From the NCBI RefSeq assembly GCF_051903065.1, contig NZ_CP178438.1: a DNA stretch of 64,000 nt; one strand, written 5' to 3'. Source of the stretch: Escherichia coli. GTDB lineage: Bacteria > Pseudomonadota > Gammaproteobacteria > Enterobacterales > Enterobacteriaceae. The notes below the pieces were generated by a model. That model ran no database searches. It was not told where the DNA came from and saw only the letters and a program-made list of their open reading frames with translations. The translations under genes and the position numbers were made by a program. Position 1 is the first letter of the stretch; each line of letters begins with the position of its first letter. This document shows, in pieces, positions 3,168 through 50,907 of this stretch.

Positions 3168-3626
3168 ATGTATCCCCTGCGTGTCGATCTGCGCGCTGGC
3201 ACCTTCGCCGCAGATCCACTCTTCCAGACGCTCGGTAAGCGCTTCATCCGTCAGCTTCTCGCGCCCACGTAACGCGCACTCCCAGACAATCAATACGCGC
3301 CAGCCGAGTTCCTGCAAGCGACTGATATCGCGGCGATCGCGCTCAACATTTTTACCTATCTTCTCCAGCCAGAACTCGGTTCGAGTCGCAGGCACTTTAA
3401 ACAGATAGCAGTGATGATGGTGCCAGAAGCAGCCGTGGGTAAATATCACGCAACAATATTCATCAACGACAAAATCCGGGCGTCCGGGCAGACTGGCGTC
3501 CTGAACGCGAAACGCCAGGCCCTGCCCGGTTAACAGACTGGCGAGGCGCTTCTCTATCGCCGTATTACGCGTGGCAATCGCGCGCATATTTTTGCTGCGA
3601 GTGGCCTTATCGTGAACGTCGGCCAT
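3156..3626 (-). CDS. vsr: Very-short-patch repair endonuclease Vsr
   Basis: 156 aa beginning [22 protein letters not shown]; start ATG at 3624-3626 lies inside the dcm 3' end (20-bp overlap). The track's 210-aa ORF is an upstream in-frame extension. Confidence 0.9.
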
Positions 3627-5025
3627 GTTGTGCCTCTTGCTGACGCAACGCCACCGCCTGTTTGATTTTTGGCTCAAGCAGTTTTGCCACCGCGGCAAAG
3701 ACCGGCACGACCACCGAGTTACCGAGCTGGCGATAGGCCTGAGTGTCCGAAACCGGAATGCGGAATTTCGCTTCTCCCGGCGCTTCAAAACCCATTAAGC
3801 GCGCACATTCCCGAGGCGTTAACCGACGTGGACGATGTTGCTGATTCAGCGGATCGTCAAAGTCTTTCTCACCCGTGGCCATATCCCAGCCGCGATCGAT
3901 TAAAATTTCCGCGCCATCTTTGTAATAACGCGCAGACAGCGTACGCGTGACGCTTTGCGGATTGTTCGGATAAACCATTCCATAACCGAAGCCGTTACCG
4001 CGCGCCTGATGTTTTTTCGCATAACGATAGAGGTACTTCCACAGCACCGGCGTCAGGATATATTTCGCCTCGACCATCGGGTCCAGCAGCTGCGCCAGCG
4101 TCACTCGCTGTGCAGGGAAACATTCGCTGATATCACGCAGAGTAAAATCGGCTTTCAGATTAAGATCGCGACGAAAACCCACCAGCACGATGCGTTCACG
4201 GTGCTGCGGCAGGAAATGTTTACCATCGATGATTTTCGGATCGTCCGGCCCGTTATCTTCTGCATCAGCCACGTCATAGCCCAGTTCGTCCAGCGTCTGC
4301 ATGATGATGCGGAACGTTTTTCCTTTATCGTGACTTTTCAGGTTTTTGACGTTTTCGAGCACAAACATCGCCGGACGACGCGCGTCGATAATACGCACCA
4401 CATCAAAGAACAGCGTGCCCTGGGTATCGCAGGCAAAACCGTGCGCCCGCCCGAGCGAGTTCTTTTTCGATACGCCAGCCAGCGAAAATGGCTGACAAGG
4501 GAAACCGGCCAGTAAAACATCGTGTTCAGGAATGTGTTGACGAATATGTTCCGCCGCCGCCTCATCACTCACGCCTTCTTTATGGCTGAGGGTGATGTCG
4601 CGGATATCTTCATTAAAATGATGCGTCGCCGGGTCGCAATAATGATTGGCTTTATAAGTGCGTACCGCATGTTTGTTCCATTCGCTGGTAAACACGCACT
4701 GTCCGCCAATCGATTCAAAACCGCGACGGATGCCGCCAATTCCGGCAAATAGATCGATAAAGCGAAACGCATAATGCGGATGATGTGCCGGTGGTTTGGG
4801 TAACAACGTTTGCAGATGGGCGAACTCTTTCTCACTTAAACGGTGCCATGCCGAGTCATTCGCCAGCGCACGTTTTAAAATTGCCGCGCTCCAGTGATTC
4901 TCACCCACACCATTAAGCTGCGCCACCAGCGTTTTAACATCATAAATTTGCAGCAGTTTCTCCAGCATTGCCTGTGCGGCATTCCCGGTGCTGTATGAAT
5001 CGGTTACTGATATATTTTCCTGCAT
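3607..5025 (-). CDS. dcm: DNA-cytosine methyltransferase Dcm (CCWGG)
   Basis: 472 aa with C5-MTase motifs DLFAGIGG (motif I) and GFPCQPFS (motif IV catalytic Cys). Confidence 0.92.
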
Positions 5026-5091
5026 AGATTTAACCGGCCATCTGAGATGGTCGACAGGTTAACATAATTACAGCCATTTAGGGCCACGCGC

Positions 5092-5787
5092 TCAGCCCGC
5101 GGGTGAAAACGCATCTATCACCTTGTGATCGACACCTTCATTCTCCCCCGCCAGTTCGGCACTGAGCTTCGCCATAAACTCGACTAAAAATTGCGCGTTG
5201 TGCTGCGCCAGCTGCTTGCCTCTTGCGGTTTGCATGGTTTGCGGTAGCTTCAGCAACTTAGTCTGGAAATGATCCAGCGCGTAGCGTTTATCATCAAGCG
5301 GGCGATGCTGTGCGAACGGATCTTCACCATCAAACAGCGCCATGCCCAATGCCCCTGAAACGGCAAACACGCGCGCCAGGCCAATCGCCCCCAGGGCTTC
5401 CAGCCGATCCGCATCCTGGACGATTTTAGCTTCCGTTGTTAAGGGGGCGATTTGCGCGCTGAAACTGTGAGCGGCAATGGCATGACAAACGGCCTCGATT
5501 TTCTCCGCCGGAAATTGCTCGAACTCTTCACGGAGCAGGCGACGCGTCTCTTCTGCCGCCAGGATTGAAGAACGCTGCCGTTGCGGATGATTTTTCGCCA
5601 GACTCACAATATCGTGGAAATAACAGGCGGTTAAAATCACCAGCATATCGACGTCATCATCTGCCGCCAGCTTCTGTGCCGTAGCCCAGACGCGGCGAAA
5701 ATGACACACGTCATGGGCCGCGTCCTGGTGCTGATGATGGTTTTTCAACCAGTTTTCGAACTGTGCCTGCCAGTGTTGTAAGTCCAT
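5092..5787 (-). CDS. yedJ: HD-domain phosphohydrolase YedJ
   Basis: 231-aa ORF; synteny downstream of dcm. Confidence 0.75.
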
Positions 5788-5826
5788 ACGCGCTCCGTTG
5801 CCAAAGAGTCGCCACCTTAGCAGTTT

Positions 5827-6210
5827 TTATTCATAGCGTCTGCTACGTGCGGGACGAGGTCGGGTGTACCAGGCAATGCTGCCTAACAATGCCCCGACCA
5901 GAGCCATAAATAAAAATCCGACCAGTGCCCCTAACCACTTTCCCGCGGTAGAGCCTAAATCGCTTTCAAATCCCGACACGGGGGCATCGGGGATCCGGCT
6001 CATCACCCAGATGTAACGCGCCATTGCCCAGACGAAATAGCCACACCATGTATAGAAAGCCCACAAAGCCAGTTTGCCGCCAGGGCTGCGAGAGAGTCTC
6101 TCTTCCATCTTTGTCGAACCGTATTCCATTTTGAGATAACCCGGAAAATTCAGACTTAGTACTATTATGTGATAAAAGTCACATTTTTCCACATTGAATG
6201 AGCCAGTCAA
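5827..6210 (-). CDS. yedR: Small inner-membrane protein YedR
   Basis: 127-aa ORF with two hydrophobic helices; exact start uncertain. Confidence 0.6.
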   Translation of the reverse strand: MTGSFNVEKCDFYHIIVLSLNFPGYLKMEYGSTKMEERLSRSPGGKLALWAFYTWCGYFVWAMARYIWVMSRIPDAPVSGFESDLGSTAGKWLGALVGFLFMALVGALLGSIAWYTRPRPARSRRYE

Positions 6211-6355
6211 GACTCAATCATTTTTTGAACAAATAGATAAATTTTGCGCAACGGCAGTGAATACAGGAAAAATCGTTTTGAGCGATTTTATTTATCTTTG
6301 ATATCGGCTTTATTAATTCATTTAATCAATATATTAGCACTGAATACAATTATAC

Positions 6356-6446
6356 CTTTTTATTTTTCTGTGTCATGATGCCTCCGTTATTAGCCTTTTA
6401 TCGTCTTGTTTATATTTTTTGGGCCGGCATGATGCCGGCTTTTTTT
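6356..6446 (+). ncRNA. rseX: Putative RseX small RNA (yedR-yedS intergenic)
   Basis: Intrinsic terminator GCCGGCA-TGA-TGCCGGC plus T7 ending at 6446; RseX is known to lie between yedR and yedS. The 5' end is an estimate. Confidence 0.4.
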
Positions 6447-6757
6447 ATGCCTTCATTAATGTGCGCGTGATCACACCAGCCGTTTAGCGCAACAATCATT
6501 GATACCCCCTATCTTTCCGCTCAACTCATAACATATTGATATGCATTTATAATCTTCATGAATGCTTATATTTAGAATTCATAATTCTGAATTATATTAA
6601 ATAGATTGGAAACATTTTGAAATCTTTTAAATATATTTGTTACATGTAATCCTTAAAATAAAATGAACTTCATAGAATAGTATCCAAATGTGCTTTTTTT
6701 TGGATAACGGCACTTATTGATATATTCATGAAGATTATAATCACAAGGGAATACATA

Positions 6758-7945
6758 ATGAAAAGAAAAGTTCTGGCAATGCTGGTCCCGGCGTTATTAG
6801 TTGCTGGCGCAGCAAATGCGGCTGAAATTTATAATAAAGATGGCAATAAACTGGATTTGTACGGAAAAGTAGCGGGCCTGCACTACTTCTCTGATGATGC
6901 TGGCAGCGATGGCGACATGTCATATGCCCGTATCGGTTTCAAAGGTGAAACTCAGATCGCTGACCAATTCACTGGTTATGGTCAGTGGGAATTTAACATT
7001 GGCGCAAACGGTCCTGAAAGCGACAAGGGTAATACCGCAACGCGTCTGGCATTTGCAGGTTTCGGCTTTGGTCAGAATGGTACTTTCGACTATGGTCGTA
7101 ACTACGGTGTCGTATATGACGTAGAAGCATGGACCGATATGCTGCCAGAATTTGGTGGCGATACCTATGCTGGCGCTGACAACTTCATGAACGGTCGTGC
7201 TAATGGTGTTGCAACCTACCGTAACAATGGCTTCTTTGGTCAGGTCGATGGCCTGAACTTTGCTCTGCAATATCAGGGTAATAATGAAGATGATGGATTA
7301 TTCGGTCAGGAAGGTTCTGGTAACGGTAATGGCCGTAAGTTAGCTAAAGAGAACGGCGACGGCTTCGGTATGTCCACTTCCTATGACTTCGACTTCGGTT
7401 TAAGTCTGGGTGCTGCATATTCTAACTCTGACCGTACCGACAATCAGGTTCACAAAGGTACTCATAACACTCGTTATGGAGATCGCTTCGATGCAACTGC
7501 TGGCGGTGAAACAGCAGAAGCATGGACCGTTGGTGCTAAATACGACGCTAATAACGTTTACTTAGCAGCTATGTATGCTGAAACCCGTAACATGACTGGT
7601 TACGGTGATGCTGATGCCATCGCTAACAAAACCCAAAACTTTGAAGTTGTTGCTCAGTATCAGTTCGACTTTGGTCTGCGCCCGTCCATCGCTTACCTGC
7701 AATCTAAAGGTAAGGATTTAGGCGGTGTAAATAGTGATAACTTCGACAGCCAGGGTAATCATCACTACACCAACAAAGATCTGGTTAAATATGTTGATAT
7801 TGGTATGACCTACTACTTCAACAAAAACATGTCCACCTATGTTGATTACAAAATCAACCTGCTGGACAACGACGACGACTTCTACAAAGAAAACGGCATC
7901 GCTACCGATGATATCGTTGCTGTGGGCTTAGTCTACCAGTTCTAA
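6758..7945 (+). CDS. yedS: Outer-membrane general porin (OmpC/OmpF family), intact YedS-type
   Basis: Signal peptide [21 protein letters not shown], porin N-terminus [16 protein letters not shown] and C-terminal ...VGLVYQF; RBS AAGGGA 8 nt upstream of ATG 6758. The track's ORF starts at an upstream ATG (6728). Confidence 0.8.
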
Positions 7946-7987
7946 TCAGCCAACTCGCTGCGGCGTGTTACTGTAAAACTGAACACT

Positions 7988-8026
7988 AGCCTGAGTTCGT
8001 CCCTCATCGAACTCAGGCTTTTTTAT
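7988..8026 (+). terminator. Intrinsic terminator of yedS
   Basis: AGCCTGAGTTCG...CGAACTCAGGCT 12-bp stem followed by TTTTTTATT. Confidence 0.65.
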
Positions 8027-8537
8027 TGACATTTCATCTCCCTCTGCGGCACACGCAATTGCCAAAGCATATCGATACACCACCTTACCCTGCCCCTCCT
8101 GGCACAATATCTTCTACCAGCTACTCTTCCAGCCAACACCCCAAATACATTTCTTTATGAATTAATCCGCAACAAACACACTTCCCATATAGAAATATTT
8201 GCAAAAATAGTGCATGAAAAAAGCTTTTTCTCTGCCAATCCTGGATATAAATATTCATCAGCACCACAATATTCCACAGCACTAAATCTCTCCCCGCCAC
8301 CCCGTACCTCTGATAATGGTCTAAAATCATTGAGGCCACTTGCGACGACGTTGCTCAATAAGGAAAATTTGGCGTGAATAATATTCAACACCAGTGCAGC
8401 ATCATCATTACATACTTACACCCGCCGACTACCGCTTTCGATATATTGACTCAATTTTCCAGCCTGGTTAAAAATAGCGACCAGCTCAGTCGCAAATATA
8501 GTGACTACCCTAACTAAGCAACAATAAGGAATACACT

Positions 8538-9389
8538 ATGACTGTTCAAACAAGTAAAAATCCGCAGGTCGATATTGCTGAAGATAATGCATTCTTCCCT
8601 TCAGAATATTCGCTTAGCCAATATACCAGTCCTGTCTCTGATCTTGATGGCGTGGACTATCCAAAACCTTATCGCGGTAAACATAAAATTCTGGTGATCG
8701 CCGCGGACGAACGTTATTTGCCGACCGATAACGGAAAACTGTTCTCGACCGGTAACCATCCGATTGAAACGTTGCTGCCGTTGTATCATCTCCATGCTGC
8801 AGGTTTCGAATTCGAAGTGGCGACCATTTCCGGTCTGATGACCAAGTTTGAATACTGGGCTATGCCGCACAAAGATGAAAAAGTAATGCCATTCTTTGAG
8901 CAGCATAAATCGTTGTTCCGCAATCCGAAGAAACTCGCGGATGTTGTCGCCAGCCTCAACGCTGATAGCGAATATGCAGCAATCTTTGTTCCTGGTGGTC
9001 ATGGCGCACTTATTGGTTTACCTGAAAGCCAGGACGTAGCTGCCGCTTTACAGTGGGCAATCAAAAATGACCGTTTTGTTATCTCCCTTTGCCACGGCCC
9101 GGCGGCTTTTCTGGCGCTTCGCCACGGCGATAACCCACTGAATGGTTATTCCATTTGCGCATTCCCAGACGCCGCAGACAAACAAACGCCAGAGATTGGC
9201 TATATGCCGGGTCATCTCACCTGGTACTTCGGCGAAGAGCTGAAGAAAATGGGCATGAACATTATTAATGACGACATCACCGGGCGAGTACATAAGGACC
9301 GTAAAGTTCTCACCGGCGACAGTCCTTTCGCAGCGAATGCGTTGGGTAAACTGGCGGCGCAGGAAATGCTGGCAGCTTACGCGGGTTAA
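8538..9389 (+). CDS. hchA: Hsp31 glyoxalase / protein deglycase HchA (DJ-1/PfpI family)
   Basis: 283 aa; recognised sequence MTVQTSKNPQVDIAEDNAFFPSEYSLSQYTSP... Confidence 0.9.
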   Translation: MTVQTSKNPQVDIAEDNAFFPSEYSLSQYTSPVSDLDGVDYPKPYRGKHKILVIAADERYLPTDNGKLFSTGNHPIETLLPLYHLHAAGFEFEVATISGLMTKFEYWAMPHKDEKVMPFFEQHKSLFRNPKKLADVVASLNADSEYAAIFVPGGHGALIGLPESQDVAAALQWAIKNDRFVISLCHGPAAFLALRHGDNPLNGYSICAFPDAADKQTPEIGYMPGHLTWYFGEELKKMGMNIINDDITGRVHKDRKVLTGDSPFAANALGKLAAQEMLAAYAG

Positions 9390-16170: not shown

Positions 16171-16260
16171 TGGCGGAGAGAGGGGGATTTGAACCCCCGG
16201 TAGAGTTGCCCCTACTCCGGTTTTCGAGACCGGTCCGTTCAGCCGCTCCGGCATCTCTCC
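16171..16260 (-). tRNA. serU: tRNA-Ser (serU)
   Basis: Reverse complement reads GGAGAGATGCCGGAGCGGCTGAACGGACCGGTCTCGAAAACCGGAGTAGGGGCAACTCTACCGGGGGTTCAAATCCCCCTCTCTCCGCCA; long variable arm; CCA encoded. Confidence 0.9.
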
Positions 16261-17251: not shown

Positions 17252-17327
17252 TCCTCTGTAGTTCAGTCGGTAGAACGGCGGACTGTTAATCCGTATGTCA
17301 CTGGTTCGAGTCCAGTCAGAGGAGCCA
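17252..17327 (+). tRNA. asnT: tRNA-Asn (GUU)
   Basis: TCCTCTGTAGTTCAGTCGGTAGAACGGCGGACTGTTAATCCGTATGTCACTGGTTCGAGTCCAGTCAGAGGAGCCA. Confidence 0.95.
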
Positions 17328-17637: not shown

Positions 17638-25620
<7,983 letters not shown>

Positions 25621-25881: not shown

Positions 25882-26934
25882 TCATATTCTCGCCAAAACA
25901 CTTTTTAATGCCTTTGCGAATTCATCCAGACTTATATTGTCAATTTTTTGCCCAACGACGACTGACTCCGAAACATCGGCCATTGCGGGCCATCGCGTTT
26001 TGTAATCAGCATAAATTGCAACAACGGGGGTATTATAGGCACTTGCCATATGTAATATTGAGGTGTCAGGAGTTATTGCGATATAAGCATCTTTTATGAT
26101 TGCTGCTGAACGTTTAATCGAGGGTGATAAGGATAAACGGTAGACATTATTATAACAATCCACTAATACCCTGGCTTTATCTTCCCCTTTTGGTCCATGA
26201 ACGATCACTATTGGTATATCTGTTTCACTTTGAATTTTTTCTATTAGATTTTCTGCAATCGATAGTGAAAATGTACGATCCTGCGAGCTACCTTCTAAAT
26301 TAAGCGCAATGTAAGATCCTAACGATCGCATTTCCTCGCGCACCTCATCGAGTACATCCTCACTTAGTGGCAATTCATATATTGGCCTGACTGCCGGAAA
26401 ACCCGCCTCACGCATCATAAATGCCCATGTCATGGGTACGGGAGCCCGGAGATTCTGATCCATCCGGGACGCGTTCTTACACACAGGGGAATAGCACTTC
26501 ATGGTTAAACCAACAACCTGAAAATTCGTTTTTGCTTTCAACTGACTGATAAATAACATCGTTTTCAGGTTCTTTTTACGCATCGCCTCTATACAAAGAT
26601 CCGGAGTACCGTATTGCTGTGTTATGTTCTTCGCTAAATCTTTTATTTCTTTTAATGTTGCGTGATCCTGCATAGTCATTGTGACTAATGTTAATTTAGT
26701 CTGTTCAAGTTTGAGCGCATTAAAGACTTCTAAATTAATTGTCGACGTAACAATTAATAGATGCTTAATTTTATGCAATTCAAGCGCCCGAATAACAGGA
26801 AAGATGGCCATAGCATCGCCAATCTGATCGGGAATATGGATGACAACAAAGTCTGTTTTTTCAATATTGAAATTATAAGCTTTATAATCGTAGTAACTAA
26901 ATGCAATACGTCTCAACAATGATACTAAAAACAT
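25882..26934 (-). CDS. yeeL: GT9-family (ADP-heptose heptosyltransferase-like) glycosyltransferase YeeL, apparently intact
   Basis: 350 aa from ATG 26934 (MFLVSLLRR...). C-terminal motif ITPDTSILHMASAYNTPVVAIYADYKTRWPA resembles the GT9 signature (D-S/T-G..H-L/M-A..G.P.V.L/I-F/Y). Low GC. Confidence 0.7.
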   Translation of the reverse strand: MFLVSLLRRIAFSYYDYKAYNFNIEKTDFVVIHIPDQIGDAMAIFPVIRALELHKIKHLLIVTSTINLEVFNALKLEQTKLTLVTMTMQDHATLKEIKDLAKNITQQYGTPDLCIEAMRKKNLKTMLFISQLKAKTNFQVVGLTMKCYSPVCKNASRMDQNLRAPVPMTWAFMMREAGFPAVRPIYELPLSEDVLDEVREEMRSLGSYIALNLEGSSQDRTFSLSIAENLIEKIQSETDIPIVIVHGPKGEDKARVLVDCYNNVYRLSLSPSIKRSAAIIKDAYIAITPDTSILHMASAYNTPVVAIYADYKTRWPAMADVSESVVVGQKIDNISLDEFAKALKSVLARI

Positions 26935-27248
26935 AACTAACCTCGCCTCCCTACTGGTTATAATGCAATGCAGTCTATCAGAATCATCAGGGTGCAATTT
27001 TGTGCATATGCGGACTTTTATGTTTCATATCTCGAACCTGTGGGGCCTCTGCTTAATCCTTAAACAACACCAGCAACTCCTGCGCTTTCATCTTCCAGCG
27101 AATTTTTCATGTTGCTGCTCATCAGCCATAAAATCATTTGCAGATGCGCTCTGTCGAGGTAGTCTCATAAGGTTCGTTTATAGATCGACGGCAATGTGAG
27201 TTACCTTTTCCATACTAATTATAAAAAGACAGTACAAACAGGATCATT

Positions 27249-31627: not shown

Positions 31628-31703
31628 TGGCTCCTCTGACTGGACTCGAACCAGTGACATACGGATTAACAGTCCGCCGTTCTACCGACTGAACTACAGA
31701 GGA
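31628..31703 (-). tRNA. asnW: tRNA-Asn (GUU)
   Basis: Reverse complement is identical to asnT. Upstream on the minus strand: TTGACA (rc of 31745-31750) and TAATAT (rc of 31722-31727). Confidence 0.95.
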
Positions 31704-33451: not shown

Positions 33452-33527
33452 TCCTCTGTAGTTCAGTCGGTAGAACGGCGGACTGTTAATCCGTATGTCA
33501 CTGGTTCGAGTCCAGTCAGAGGAGCCA
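33452..33527 (+). tRNA. asnU: tRNA-Asn (GUU)
   Basis: Identical 76-nt sequence to asnT. Confidence 0.95.
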
Positions 33528-35860: not shown

Positions 35861-35936
35861 TCCTCTGTAGTTCAGTCGGTAGAACGGCGGACTGTTAATC
35901 CGTATGTCACTGGTTCGAGTCCAGTCAGAGGAGCCA
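35861..35936 (+). tRNA. asnV: tRNA-Asn (GUU)
   Basis: Identical 76-nt sequence; preceded by TTGACA (35814-35819), 17 bp, TAATAT (35837-35842). Confidence 0.95.
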
Positions 35937-48317: not shown

Positions 48318-48413
48318 TTTTTTGGATTCCTCAGCGACAACAACTGTCGATTTTTAGTAAATATCTATCCGGTACGAAGCCCGGCCTCTTGGTATGAATG
48401 ATTGGTTTGAAGC

Positions 48414-48450
48414 AAAAAATAACCGACGCTGATGAAACGTCGGTTTTTAG
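48414..48450. terminator. Bidirectional intrinsic terminator downstream of yeeY
   Basis: AAAAAAT-AACCGACG-CTGATGAAA-CGTCGGTT-TTTAG. Confidence 0.55.
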
Positions 48451-48531
48451 TCATTTTTTGACAGCGGCGCATTGTGCCTAAATGGGGGGGAAATGACAAG
48501 AGAATGAGAGGCTTGTCATAATAATTTTTCT

Positions 48532-50757: not shown

Positions 50758-50808
50758 ATGACACGCGTTCAATTTAAACACCACCATCATCACCATCATC
50801 CTGACTAG
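50758..50808 (+). CDS. hisL: his operon leader peptide HisL (MTRVQFKHHHHHHHPD)
   Basis: 16 codons with seven consecutive His codons. Confidence 0.95.
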   Translation: MTRVQFKHHHHHHHPD

Positions 50809-50870
50809 TCTTTCAGGCGATGTGTGCTGGAAGACATTCAGATCTTCCAGTGGTGCATGAACGCATGAGA

Positions 50871-50907
50871 AAGCCCCCGGAAGATCACCTTCCGGGGGCT
50901 TTTTTAT
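50871..50907 (+). terminator. his attenuator terminator
   Basis: AAGCCCCCGGAAG-ATCAC-CTTCCGGGGGCTT followed by TTTTTATT, directly upstream of hisG. Confidence 0.85.

Follow-up and report, generated by a model that had tools for sequence, protein, structure and literature searches.

An intact allele of the porin gene yedS between rseX and hchA in Escherichia coli

The general porins OmpC, OmpF and PhoE share with YedS the Porin_1 domain, the type of signal peptide, the PEFGGD motif, a constriction formed by basic and acidic residues and the C-terminal YQF, but they are encoded at different loci and are only 62-66% identical to it. The closest paralogue and structure are OmpN (b1377) and OmpK37 of Klebsiella pneumoniae, respectively, whose barrel and eyelet residues match those of YedS; the L5 and L7 loops are longer in YedS, and ompN lies elsewhere on the chromosome, adjoining uspF/micC. 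Expression is poor for both OmpN and OmpK37, and OmpS1 of Salmonella is a quiescent porin silenced by H-NS. The likeness of yedS to ompS1 lies in the AT-rich upstream region and in the low expression that is expected for yedS, and the orthology of the two is a literature label. One transcriptome study of E. coli tabulates the gene as "yedS (ompS1)" (PMC2731931), and a Salmonella connection has been mentioned for the rseX-yedS region (PMC8313858). In E. coli K-12 MG1655, yedS (b4496, formerly b1964-b1966) is annotated as a pseudogene. A functional YedS was reportedly described by Warner et al. in 2013 (Antimicrob Agents Chemother 57:1935). According to later papers, functional YedS influences how susceptible cells are to carbapenems (PMC4048246, citing Warner et al., 2013) and allowed carbapenem entry in a clinical isolate without OmpC and OmpF (PMC4048246 and PMC8537846, citing Warner et al., 2013). 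An intact yedS is already known: its sequence is public, it is annotated in RefSeq and, as the citing papers relate, a functional YedS has been published (Warner et al., 2013).

We analysed a stretch of 64,000 nucleotides of E. coli DNA, here called the window, in which the gene order dcm, yedJ, drpB, rseX, yedS, hchA, hprS is the same as in K-12 (Table 1). The porin gene has the orientation of K-12 yedS, and rseX stands in the same relative position in K-12, directly upstream of yedS. The comparison of the window gene with K-12 yedS gave 88.8% nucleotide identity at 100% query coverage in a collinear alignment, and the 5' untranslated region and the signal peptide are identical in both. On sequence and position, the window gene is an intact allele of the yedS orthologue b4496. 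The first-pass annotation of this DNA had called the product a YedS-type porin, a call that is borne out by the place between drpB/rseX and hchA that the gene shares with K-12 yedS.

Table 1. Features of the yedS locus in the window (positions counted from the first nucleotide of the window)
Feature	Position	Strand	Basis or remark
dcm	3607-5025	-	
yedJ	5092-5787	-	
drpB/yedR	between yedJ and rseX		
rseX small RNA gene	6357..6446	+	Rfam RF01401 over the full model (1-94), 96.7 bits against a gathering cut-off of 50
rseX terminator hairpin	6421-6441	+	terminator scan
AT-rich rseX-yedS intergenic region, presumed promoter/5'UTR	6447..6757	+	28.9% GC vs 48% in the window
CRP-like palindrome TGTGCGCGTGATCACA	6460..6475	-	pattern match; putative site
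Candidate sigma-70 promoter TTGTTA-16 nt-TAAAAT	6637..6664	+	9/12 consensus matches, weak
Shine-Dalgarno AAGGGAA for ATG 6758	6745..6751	+	read off the sequence
Signal peptide codons, 21 aa, cleavage after ANA	6758..6820	+	mature PDB chains begin at residue 22
Mature YedS porin, 374 aa, plus stop	6821..7945	+	Porin_1 and OmpK37 matches
L3 constriction-loop motif PEFGGD, aa 130-135	7145..7162	+	alignment with OmpF, OmpC, PhoE, OmpN
Codon 162 CAG (Gln); TAG in K-12	7241..7243	+	alignment with NC_000913.3
Allele-variable segment, predicted loops L4-L7	7283..7765	+	nucleotide identity to K-12 down to 45-88% (over 7293-7810)
Intrinsic terminator, 12-bp stem (7 G-C pairs), then TTTTTATT	7988..8029	+	terminator scan
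hchA	8538-9389	+	

The open reading frame of the gene is uninterrupted on the plus strand over 6728..7945, with 405 codons followed by TAA at 7943-7945, and, since it gives a full-length match to Porin_1, it is not a chance frame. The gene almost certainly begins at the ATG at 6758 and not at the first ATG at 6728, because the former is preceded by AAGGGAA, is the start used in RefSeq and lines up with the starts of OmpC, OmpN and PhoE in the alignment. RefSeq places the start there for the gene of strain ECNB21-M121, a 100% match to that of the window (WP_047623682.1), and translation from it yields a precursor of 395 aa. The upstream ATG would add ten residues that have no counterpart in any paralogue, and inspection of the sequence ahead of it found no Shine-Dalgarno motif; the resulting 405-aa form is used by some older GenBank entries. 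The gene had first been delimited as 6728-7945: the open frame is real, and its start was set 30 nt too far upstream.

The product was matched by Pfam PF00267 (Porin_1) over profile positions 1-337 of 337 (E 2e-141) and by the NCBIfam subfamily model NF007841, "porin OmpC", with 541 bits against a cut-off of 484. A sequence search of the PDB gave OmpK37 (6v78, E 1.8e-145) as the closest solved structure, and the PDB chains of OmpK37, OmpK36, OmpC, PhoE and OmpF align end to end with YedS residues 22-395. The mature N-terminus, AEIYNK, fits the family pattern AE(I/V)YNKDGNK, and the C-terminus, ...VGLVYQF, carries a beta-signal that ends in an aromatic Phe. The family-invariant residues are all present, as are the six eyelet residues of OmpF (K16, R42, R82, R132, D113 and E117), whose equivalents in precursor numbering are K37, R58, R96, R147, D127 and E131. 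That the protein is a complete member of the OmpC/OmpF family, signal peptide and terminal aromatic residue included, is upheld by the Porin_1 match, the alignment with the PDB chains and this C-terminus. Amino-acid identity is 72-73% to OmpN, 66% to OmpC and 62% each to OmpF and PhoE.

An AlphaFold (AF2) model of YedS shows about 16 long strands, as in the 16-stranded beta-barrel fold, and predicts residues 3-18 of the signal peptide as a helix. Because the underlying alignment is shallow (16 sequences), the confidence of the model is moderate (mean pLDDT 60, pTM 0.62, loops L3-L5 below 50), and we used it for mapping strands and loops and for identifying the fold, not for pore geometry. With this model, the best Foldseek match was again OmpK37 (TM 0.86, E 3e-40, 63% identity over the structural alignment), and the leading matches OmpK37, OmpK36 and OmpC had TM values of 0.85-0.87 normalised to the target. 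The fraction of rare codons is 3.3% in yedS, compared with 0.8-1.7% in ompC/ompF, 4.2-4.8% in phoE/ompN and 7-20% in the neighbouring genes; the low value is a soft sign of selection for translation.

We therefore consider it very probable (roughly 0.9) that 6758-7945 is an intact yedS allele that codes for a non-specific diffusion porin of the OmpC/OmpF/PhoE/OmpN family. Export of the 395-aa precursor would proceed via Sec, with removal of the 21 residues of the signal peptide behind Ala-Asn-Ala; the mature protein of 374 aa would then be passed to the BAM complex, which would recognise the C-terminal signal ending in Phe. It would fold as a 16-stranded beta-barrel and form trimers, in which L3 with its PEFGGD motif is expected to tuck into the barrel, so that D127/E131 would lie opposite K37/R58/R96/R147 and form a charged constriction. 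Small hydrophilic solutes, including beta-lactams and carbapenems, might diffuse through this constriction, and the long loops L4-L7 would point outward and expose allele-specific sequence to phages, colicins and antibodies. The open frame, the family, the locus, the K-12 lesions, the conserved pore residues and the intact orthologues of other Escherichia species are observed in the sequences, whereas expression and its level, trimer formation, conductance and any receptor role are inferred from the family. The functionality and the change in permeability and receptor repertoire that the first-pass annotation ascribed to the porin are likewise presumed, with one experimental paper in their favour (Warner et al., 2013, through PMC4048246 and PMC8537846).

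The K-12 gene is broken by two lesions. Pairwise alignment with yedS of NC_000913.3 revealed a CAG to TAG change at codon 162 and a deletion of 1 nt near codon 222, which together break the frame into three pieces; the window has neither, and is undeleted at about 7420. The description of K-12 yedS as a split pseudogene in the first-pass annotation agrees with both the b4496 annotation and these two lesions. Comparison of the window gene with OmpK37, OmpN and the E. albertii orthologue revealed no missed internal stop or frameshift, a kind of defect that had been named as one that would overturn the claim of an intact porin. Searches of 5,426 complete E. coli genomes with 35-mers that match only where the lesion itself is present found the TAG lesion in 357 genomes and the deletion in 371. 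Among the matches listed, the carriers are overwhelmingly K-12 laboratory derivatives (DH5alpha, DH10B, JM109, C600, MC4100, J53 and others), which suggests that the lesions hardly occur outside the K-12 lineage. A separate loss of yedS, by insertion of IS1203, is found in an O157:H7 strain.

Compared with K-12 yedS, the window allele is 92-100% identical over the first ~530 nt and 95-100% over the last ~140 nt, and the divergence falls in the segment between. The DNA on either side of the gene, like both ends of the coding sequence, is for the most part at 97-100%. The predicted surface loops there comprise aa 176-199 (L4), 227-247 (L5), 281-286 (L6) and 324-336 (L7). When the K-12 frame is repaired, 46 of the 53 amino-acid differences lie outside the predicted strands, clustered in L4 (there at aa 178-196), L5, L6 and L7, with three more residues in L5, three more in L7 and eight fewer in L6 of the window protein. 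The exact protein of the window occurs on 174 public contigs.

Intact yedS genes of the window's class (class A, see below) were found also in other species. Escherichia sp. E1V33 (97.5% identical to the window) and E. whittamii (95.9%) have the order dcm-yedJ-drpB-rseX-yedS-hchA; E. albertii (94.4%) has yedJ-drpB-rseX-yedS-hchA-hprS, with dcm beyond the fetched stretch; and Citrobacter sedlakii (81%) has dcm-yedJ-drpB-yedS, its fetched locus giving no match to rseX or hchA. A scan with the signal-peptide codons, covering one genome per species, returned only Escherichia, C. sedlakii and two Collinsella MAG contigs, and no Salmonella locus. Since intact, syntenic yedS-type genes are present in other Escherichia and in C. 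sedlakii, an intact gene is apparently both ancestral and usual, and the broken gene of K-12 derived.

The region upstream of yedS offers several elements that might govern its expression. The four other E. coli strains compared match positions 6648-6827 at 100%, save that K-12 is at 98% over 6768-6827. An in-vitro CRP footprint at K-12 position 2033766 has been assigned to yedS (PMC12871828), and the CRP-like palindrome of the window is near-identical to that site and lies at the corresponding position. The candidate promoter would give a 5' untranslated region of ~86 nt; in a consensus scan, the number of sigma-70-like sites upstream of yedS was not above that in shuffled sequences. The 11-mer ACATTTTGAAA (6612-6622) is common to the upstream regions of yedS and ompC. 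The resemblance of this AT-rich region to the OmpR boxes C1-C3 and F1-F3 was no better than that of shuffles, which lends no support to EnvZ/OmpR regulation of the kind seen in ompC/ompF. Downstream, the terminator region is kept at 95-97% in all allele classes described below.

The yedS transcript of K-12 was reported to drop 2.5-fold upon sigma-E induction (PMC2731931), and the expression of functional YedS has been reported as MicF/MarA-dependent (PMC4048246 and PMC8537846, citing Warner et al., 2013). With RNAduplex, however, the 5' 35 nt of MicF against yedS -80..+45 and -100..+60 gave only -11.2 and -11.5 kcal/mol (z +0.5 and +0.6), compared with -27.4 kcal/mol (z about -5) for the control pair MicF-ompF. 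This gives no support for a direct pairing of MicF at the yedS start, and indirect or distal control is possible. The same kind of duplex between RseX and the yedS start was uninformative, as the known target ompC also fell within the shuffles in this low-power test. The rseX gene is reported to be repressed by H-NS/StpA (PMC8313858), and the intergenic region between rseX and yedS is a plausible H-NS target. Taken together, the upstream GC content of 29%, the adjoining H-NS-repressed rseX and the reports on sigma-E, MicF and MarA suggest that the expression of yedS is probably low or conditional.

It might be argued from such data that the gene is intact but effectively silent, that is, repressed by H-NS or otherwise, making no meaningful porin under ordinary circumstances and decaying as it has in K-12. 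The low GC content ahead of the gene, the repression of its neighbour rseX (PMC8313858), the poor expression of its closest relatives OmpN and OmpK37 and the independent losses, by nonsense mutation and frameshift in K-12 and by IS1203 in O157:H7, would all fit this reading. However, intact orthologues have been retained in several Escherichia species and one Citrobacter, the pore residues are strictly conserved while the loops vary, the codon usage resembles that of expressed porins, and carriers of the K-12 lesions are almost all laboratory derivatives. Moreover, a functional YedS has been reported in a clinical isolate (Warner et al., 2013, via PMC4048246). We regard a silent yedS as plausible but less likely than not, and as more credible than the two readings that follow.

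The frame could also be open and the gene nevertheless be a cryptic pseudogene, inactivated by a missense mutation or a promoter defect. This is very improbable, as all family-invariant and eyelet residues are in place, four other strains either equal the window over 6648-6827 or differ from it by at most 2%, exactly this protein is found on 174 contigs, and other Escherichia species have proteins with 94-97.5% identity to it.

That the gene is simply this strain's OmpC, as the NF007841 score above the cut-off and the RefSeq label ompC might suggest, can be dismissed as having next to no likelihood, since it sits between drpB/rseX and hchA and not beside micF/rcsD, where the true ompC is found in K-12 about 280 kb away, since it is nearer to OmpN than to OmpC in identity, and since the median of three matching places per genome marks it as one of several paralogues. 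The name that RefSeq gives to the window-identical gene (ompC, product "porin OmpC") comes from the subfamily model and is no indication of orthology; save for this generic name, the window yedS is correctly annotated in RefSeq.

Beyond the window allele, the locus as a whole shows a pattern of its own. In E. coli, the part that encodes the mature porin comes in four or more classes that have diverged deeply, set between near-identical flanks. The window represents class A; intact porins of the other classes are found in strains M6 (class B, 387 aa), Z22-6 (class C, 357 aa) and STEC306 (class D, 352 aa). The classes span 352-397 aa, and their identity to the window protein and among themselves is only 59-72%, a divergence comparable to that among OmpC, OmpF and PhoE. 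In all of them the signal peptide is identical, and positions 6229-6827, from rseX to the signal-peptide codons, are 92-100% identical; for the promoter region, the 5' untranslated region, the signal-peptide codons and the terminator taken together, identity across E. coli is 93-100%. From the last codons onward (7929-8540) identity is again mostly 90-100%, with 82-90% at 8108-8167; in STEC306 the downstream comparison stops near 8350 at an IS2 element. The PEFGGD motif is replaced by (L/F)VEWGGD in classes C and D, and the eyelet residues are changed in class B. At a query coverage of at least 80%, class A was found in 1,663 genomes, class B in 681, class C in 2,565 and class D in 1,850, the last two counts overlapping through cross-matches at 75% identity. 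Within class A, the window protein is nearer to those of other Escherichia species (94-97.5%) than to the remaining alleles of this class in E. coli (88-90%). The porin had been called an extra one; this does not hold for the population, in which nearly every E. coli has some porin gene at this locus.

Divergent porin segments between near-identical flanks form a cassette-like pattern in the observed sequences. We tentatively propose, as a possibility that falls somewhat short of an even chance, that the yedS locus is a porin "cassette" delimited by recombination, in which selection keeps the polymorphism, with the window carrying the ancestral Escherichia class; the upkeep by selection belongs to the proposal. 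The genome paper on EAEC 042 mentions only an [quoted passage not shown] (PMC2808357). If the proposal holds, a switch of class would alter phage and colicin receptor specificity, antigenicity and permeability while the regulation stays constant. This wider pattern is the most interesting observation made here and deserves a population-genetic study.

For the biology of E. coli, the intact yedS would mean one more route for small hydrophilic antibiotics, above all for carbapenems when OmpC and OmpF are lost, and a further surface protein of possible use to phages, colicins or antibodies. Since yedS is intact in many wild strains, the expectation drawn from K-12 that yedS is a pseudogene is not transferable to them.

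The E. coli yedS locus was found to harbor the mature-porin coding part in four or more intact classes that diverge deeply from one another, as seen when window positions 6830-7928 (class A) were compared with the loci L003, L009 (class C), L010 (class B, strain M6) and L011 (class D). The encoded proteins have sizes of 395-397, 387, 357, and 352 aa and share 59-72% amino acid identity between classes. This variable part is sharply bounded, at about 6830 and 7930 in the window, and its flanks, comprising the promoter, the 5'UTR and the signal peptide on the 5' side and the terminator on the 3' side, are near-identical.

Features located in the window and at the compared yedS loci
Feature	Coordinates	Strand	Remarks
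Class B porin	L010:3531-4694		strain M6
Class C porin	L009:3531-4604		
Class D porin	L011:3531-4589		
rseX small RNA gene	6357-6446	+	Rfam 96.7 bits
CRP-like palindrome TGTGCGCGTGATCACA	6460-6475		rseX-yedS spacer
One tRNA-Ser and four tRNA-Asn genes	16174-16260, 17252-17324, 31631-31703, 33452-33524, 35861-35933		asnT/W/U/V region
yeeJ, giant Ig-like adhesin gene	17638-25620	+	intact, 2,660 codons
Family-9 glycosyltransferase gene	25882-26997	-	intact in the window
STnc240 small RNA	48412-48486	-	68 bits
his operon leader	50784-50907	+	132 bits

The gene for the small RNA RseX lies directly 5' of yedS on the same strand and possesses a terminator of its own. Its conservation among other Escherichia species amounts to 90-93%, whereas the locus of Citrobacter sedlakii yielded no match to it. 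At the K-12 equivalent of the palindrome position a matching in vitro CRP footprint has been reported (PMC12871828).

In E. coli O157:H7 Vac_07.1 (L012, locus 3531-6030) IS1203 has inserted into a class-A yedS gene and splits it, an inactivation that is independent of the K-12 lesions. Escherichia-type yedS-locus porins are also encoded on two short contigs (L020, L021) of a "Collinsella sp." MAG, with a signal peptide identical to that of the Escherichia yedS-locus porins; these almost certainly represent binning contamination.

Strain ECNB21-M121 differs from the window by one base that introduces a premature stop at codon 698 of yeeJ, and by an IS903B element splitting the family-9 glycosyltransferase gene (junction at window 26195-26203), where the 9-bp overlap of two alignment blocks marks the target-site duplication; its genome is otherwise 99.97% identical to the window. 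The four tRNA-Asn genes have identical Rfam scores. K-12 carries CP4-44 among the tRNA genes of this region, whereas no prophage or island genes are annotated between the window's tRNA genes in the closest genome. The same genome carries the his operon, and after it wzzB, ugd, and gnd, in the DNA that corresponds to the window's far end.

With regard to the constriction zone, the class B porin has E58, K95, and V130 in comparison to R42, R82, and E117 in OmpF, and in loop L3 of classes C and D the motif (L/F)VEWGGD replaces PEFGGD. These changes suggest that pore properties differ among alleles of a single locus.
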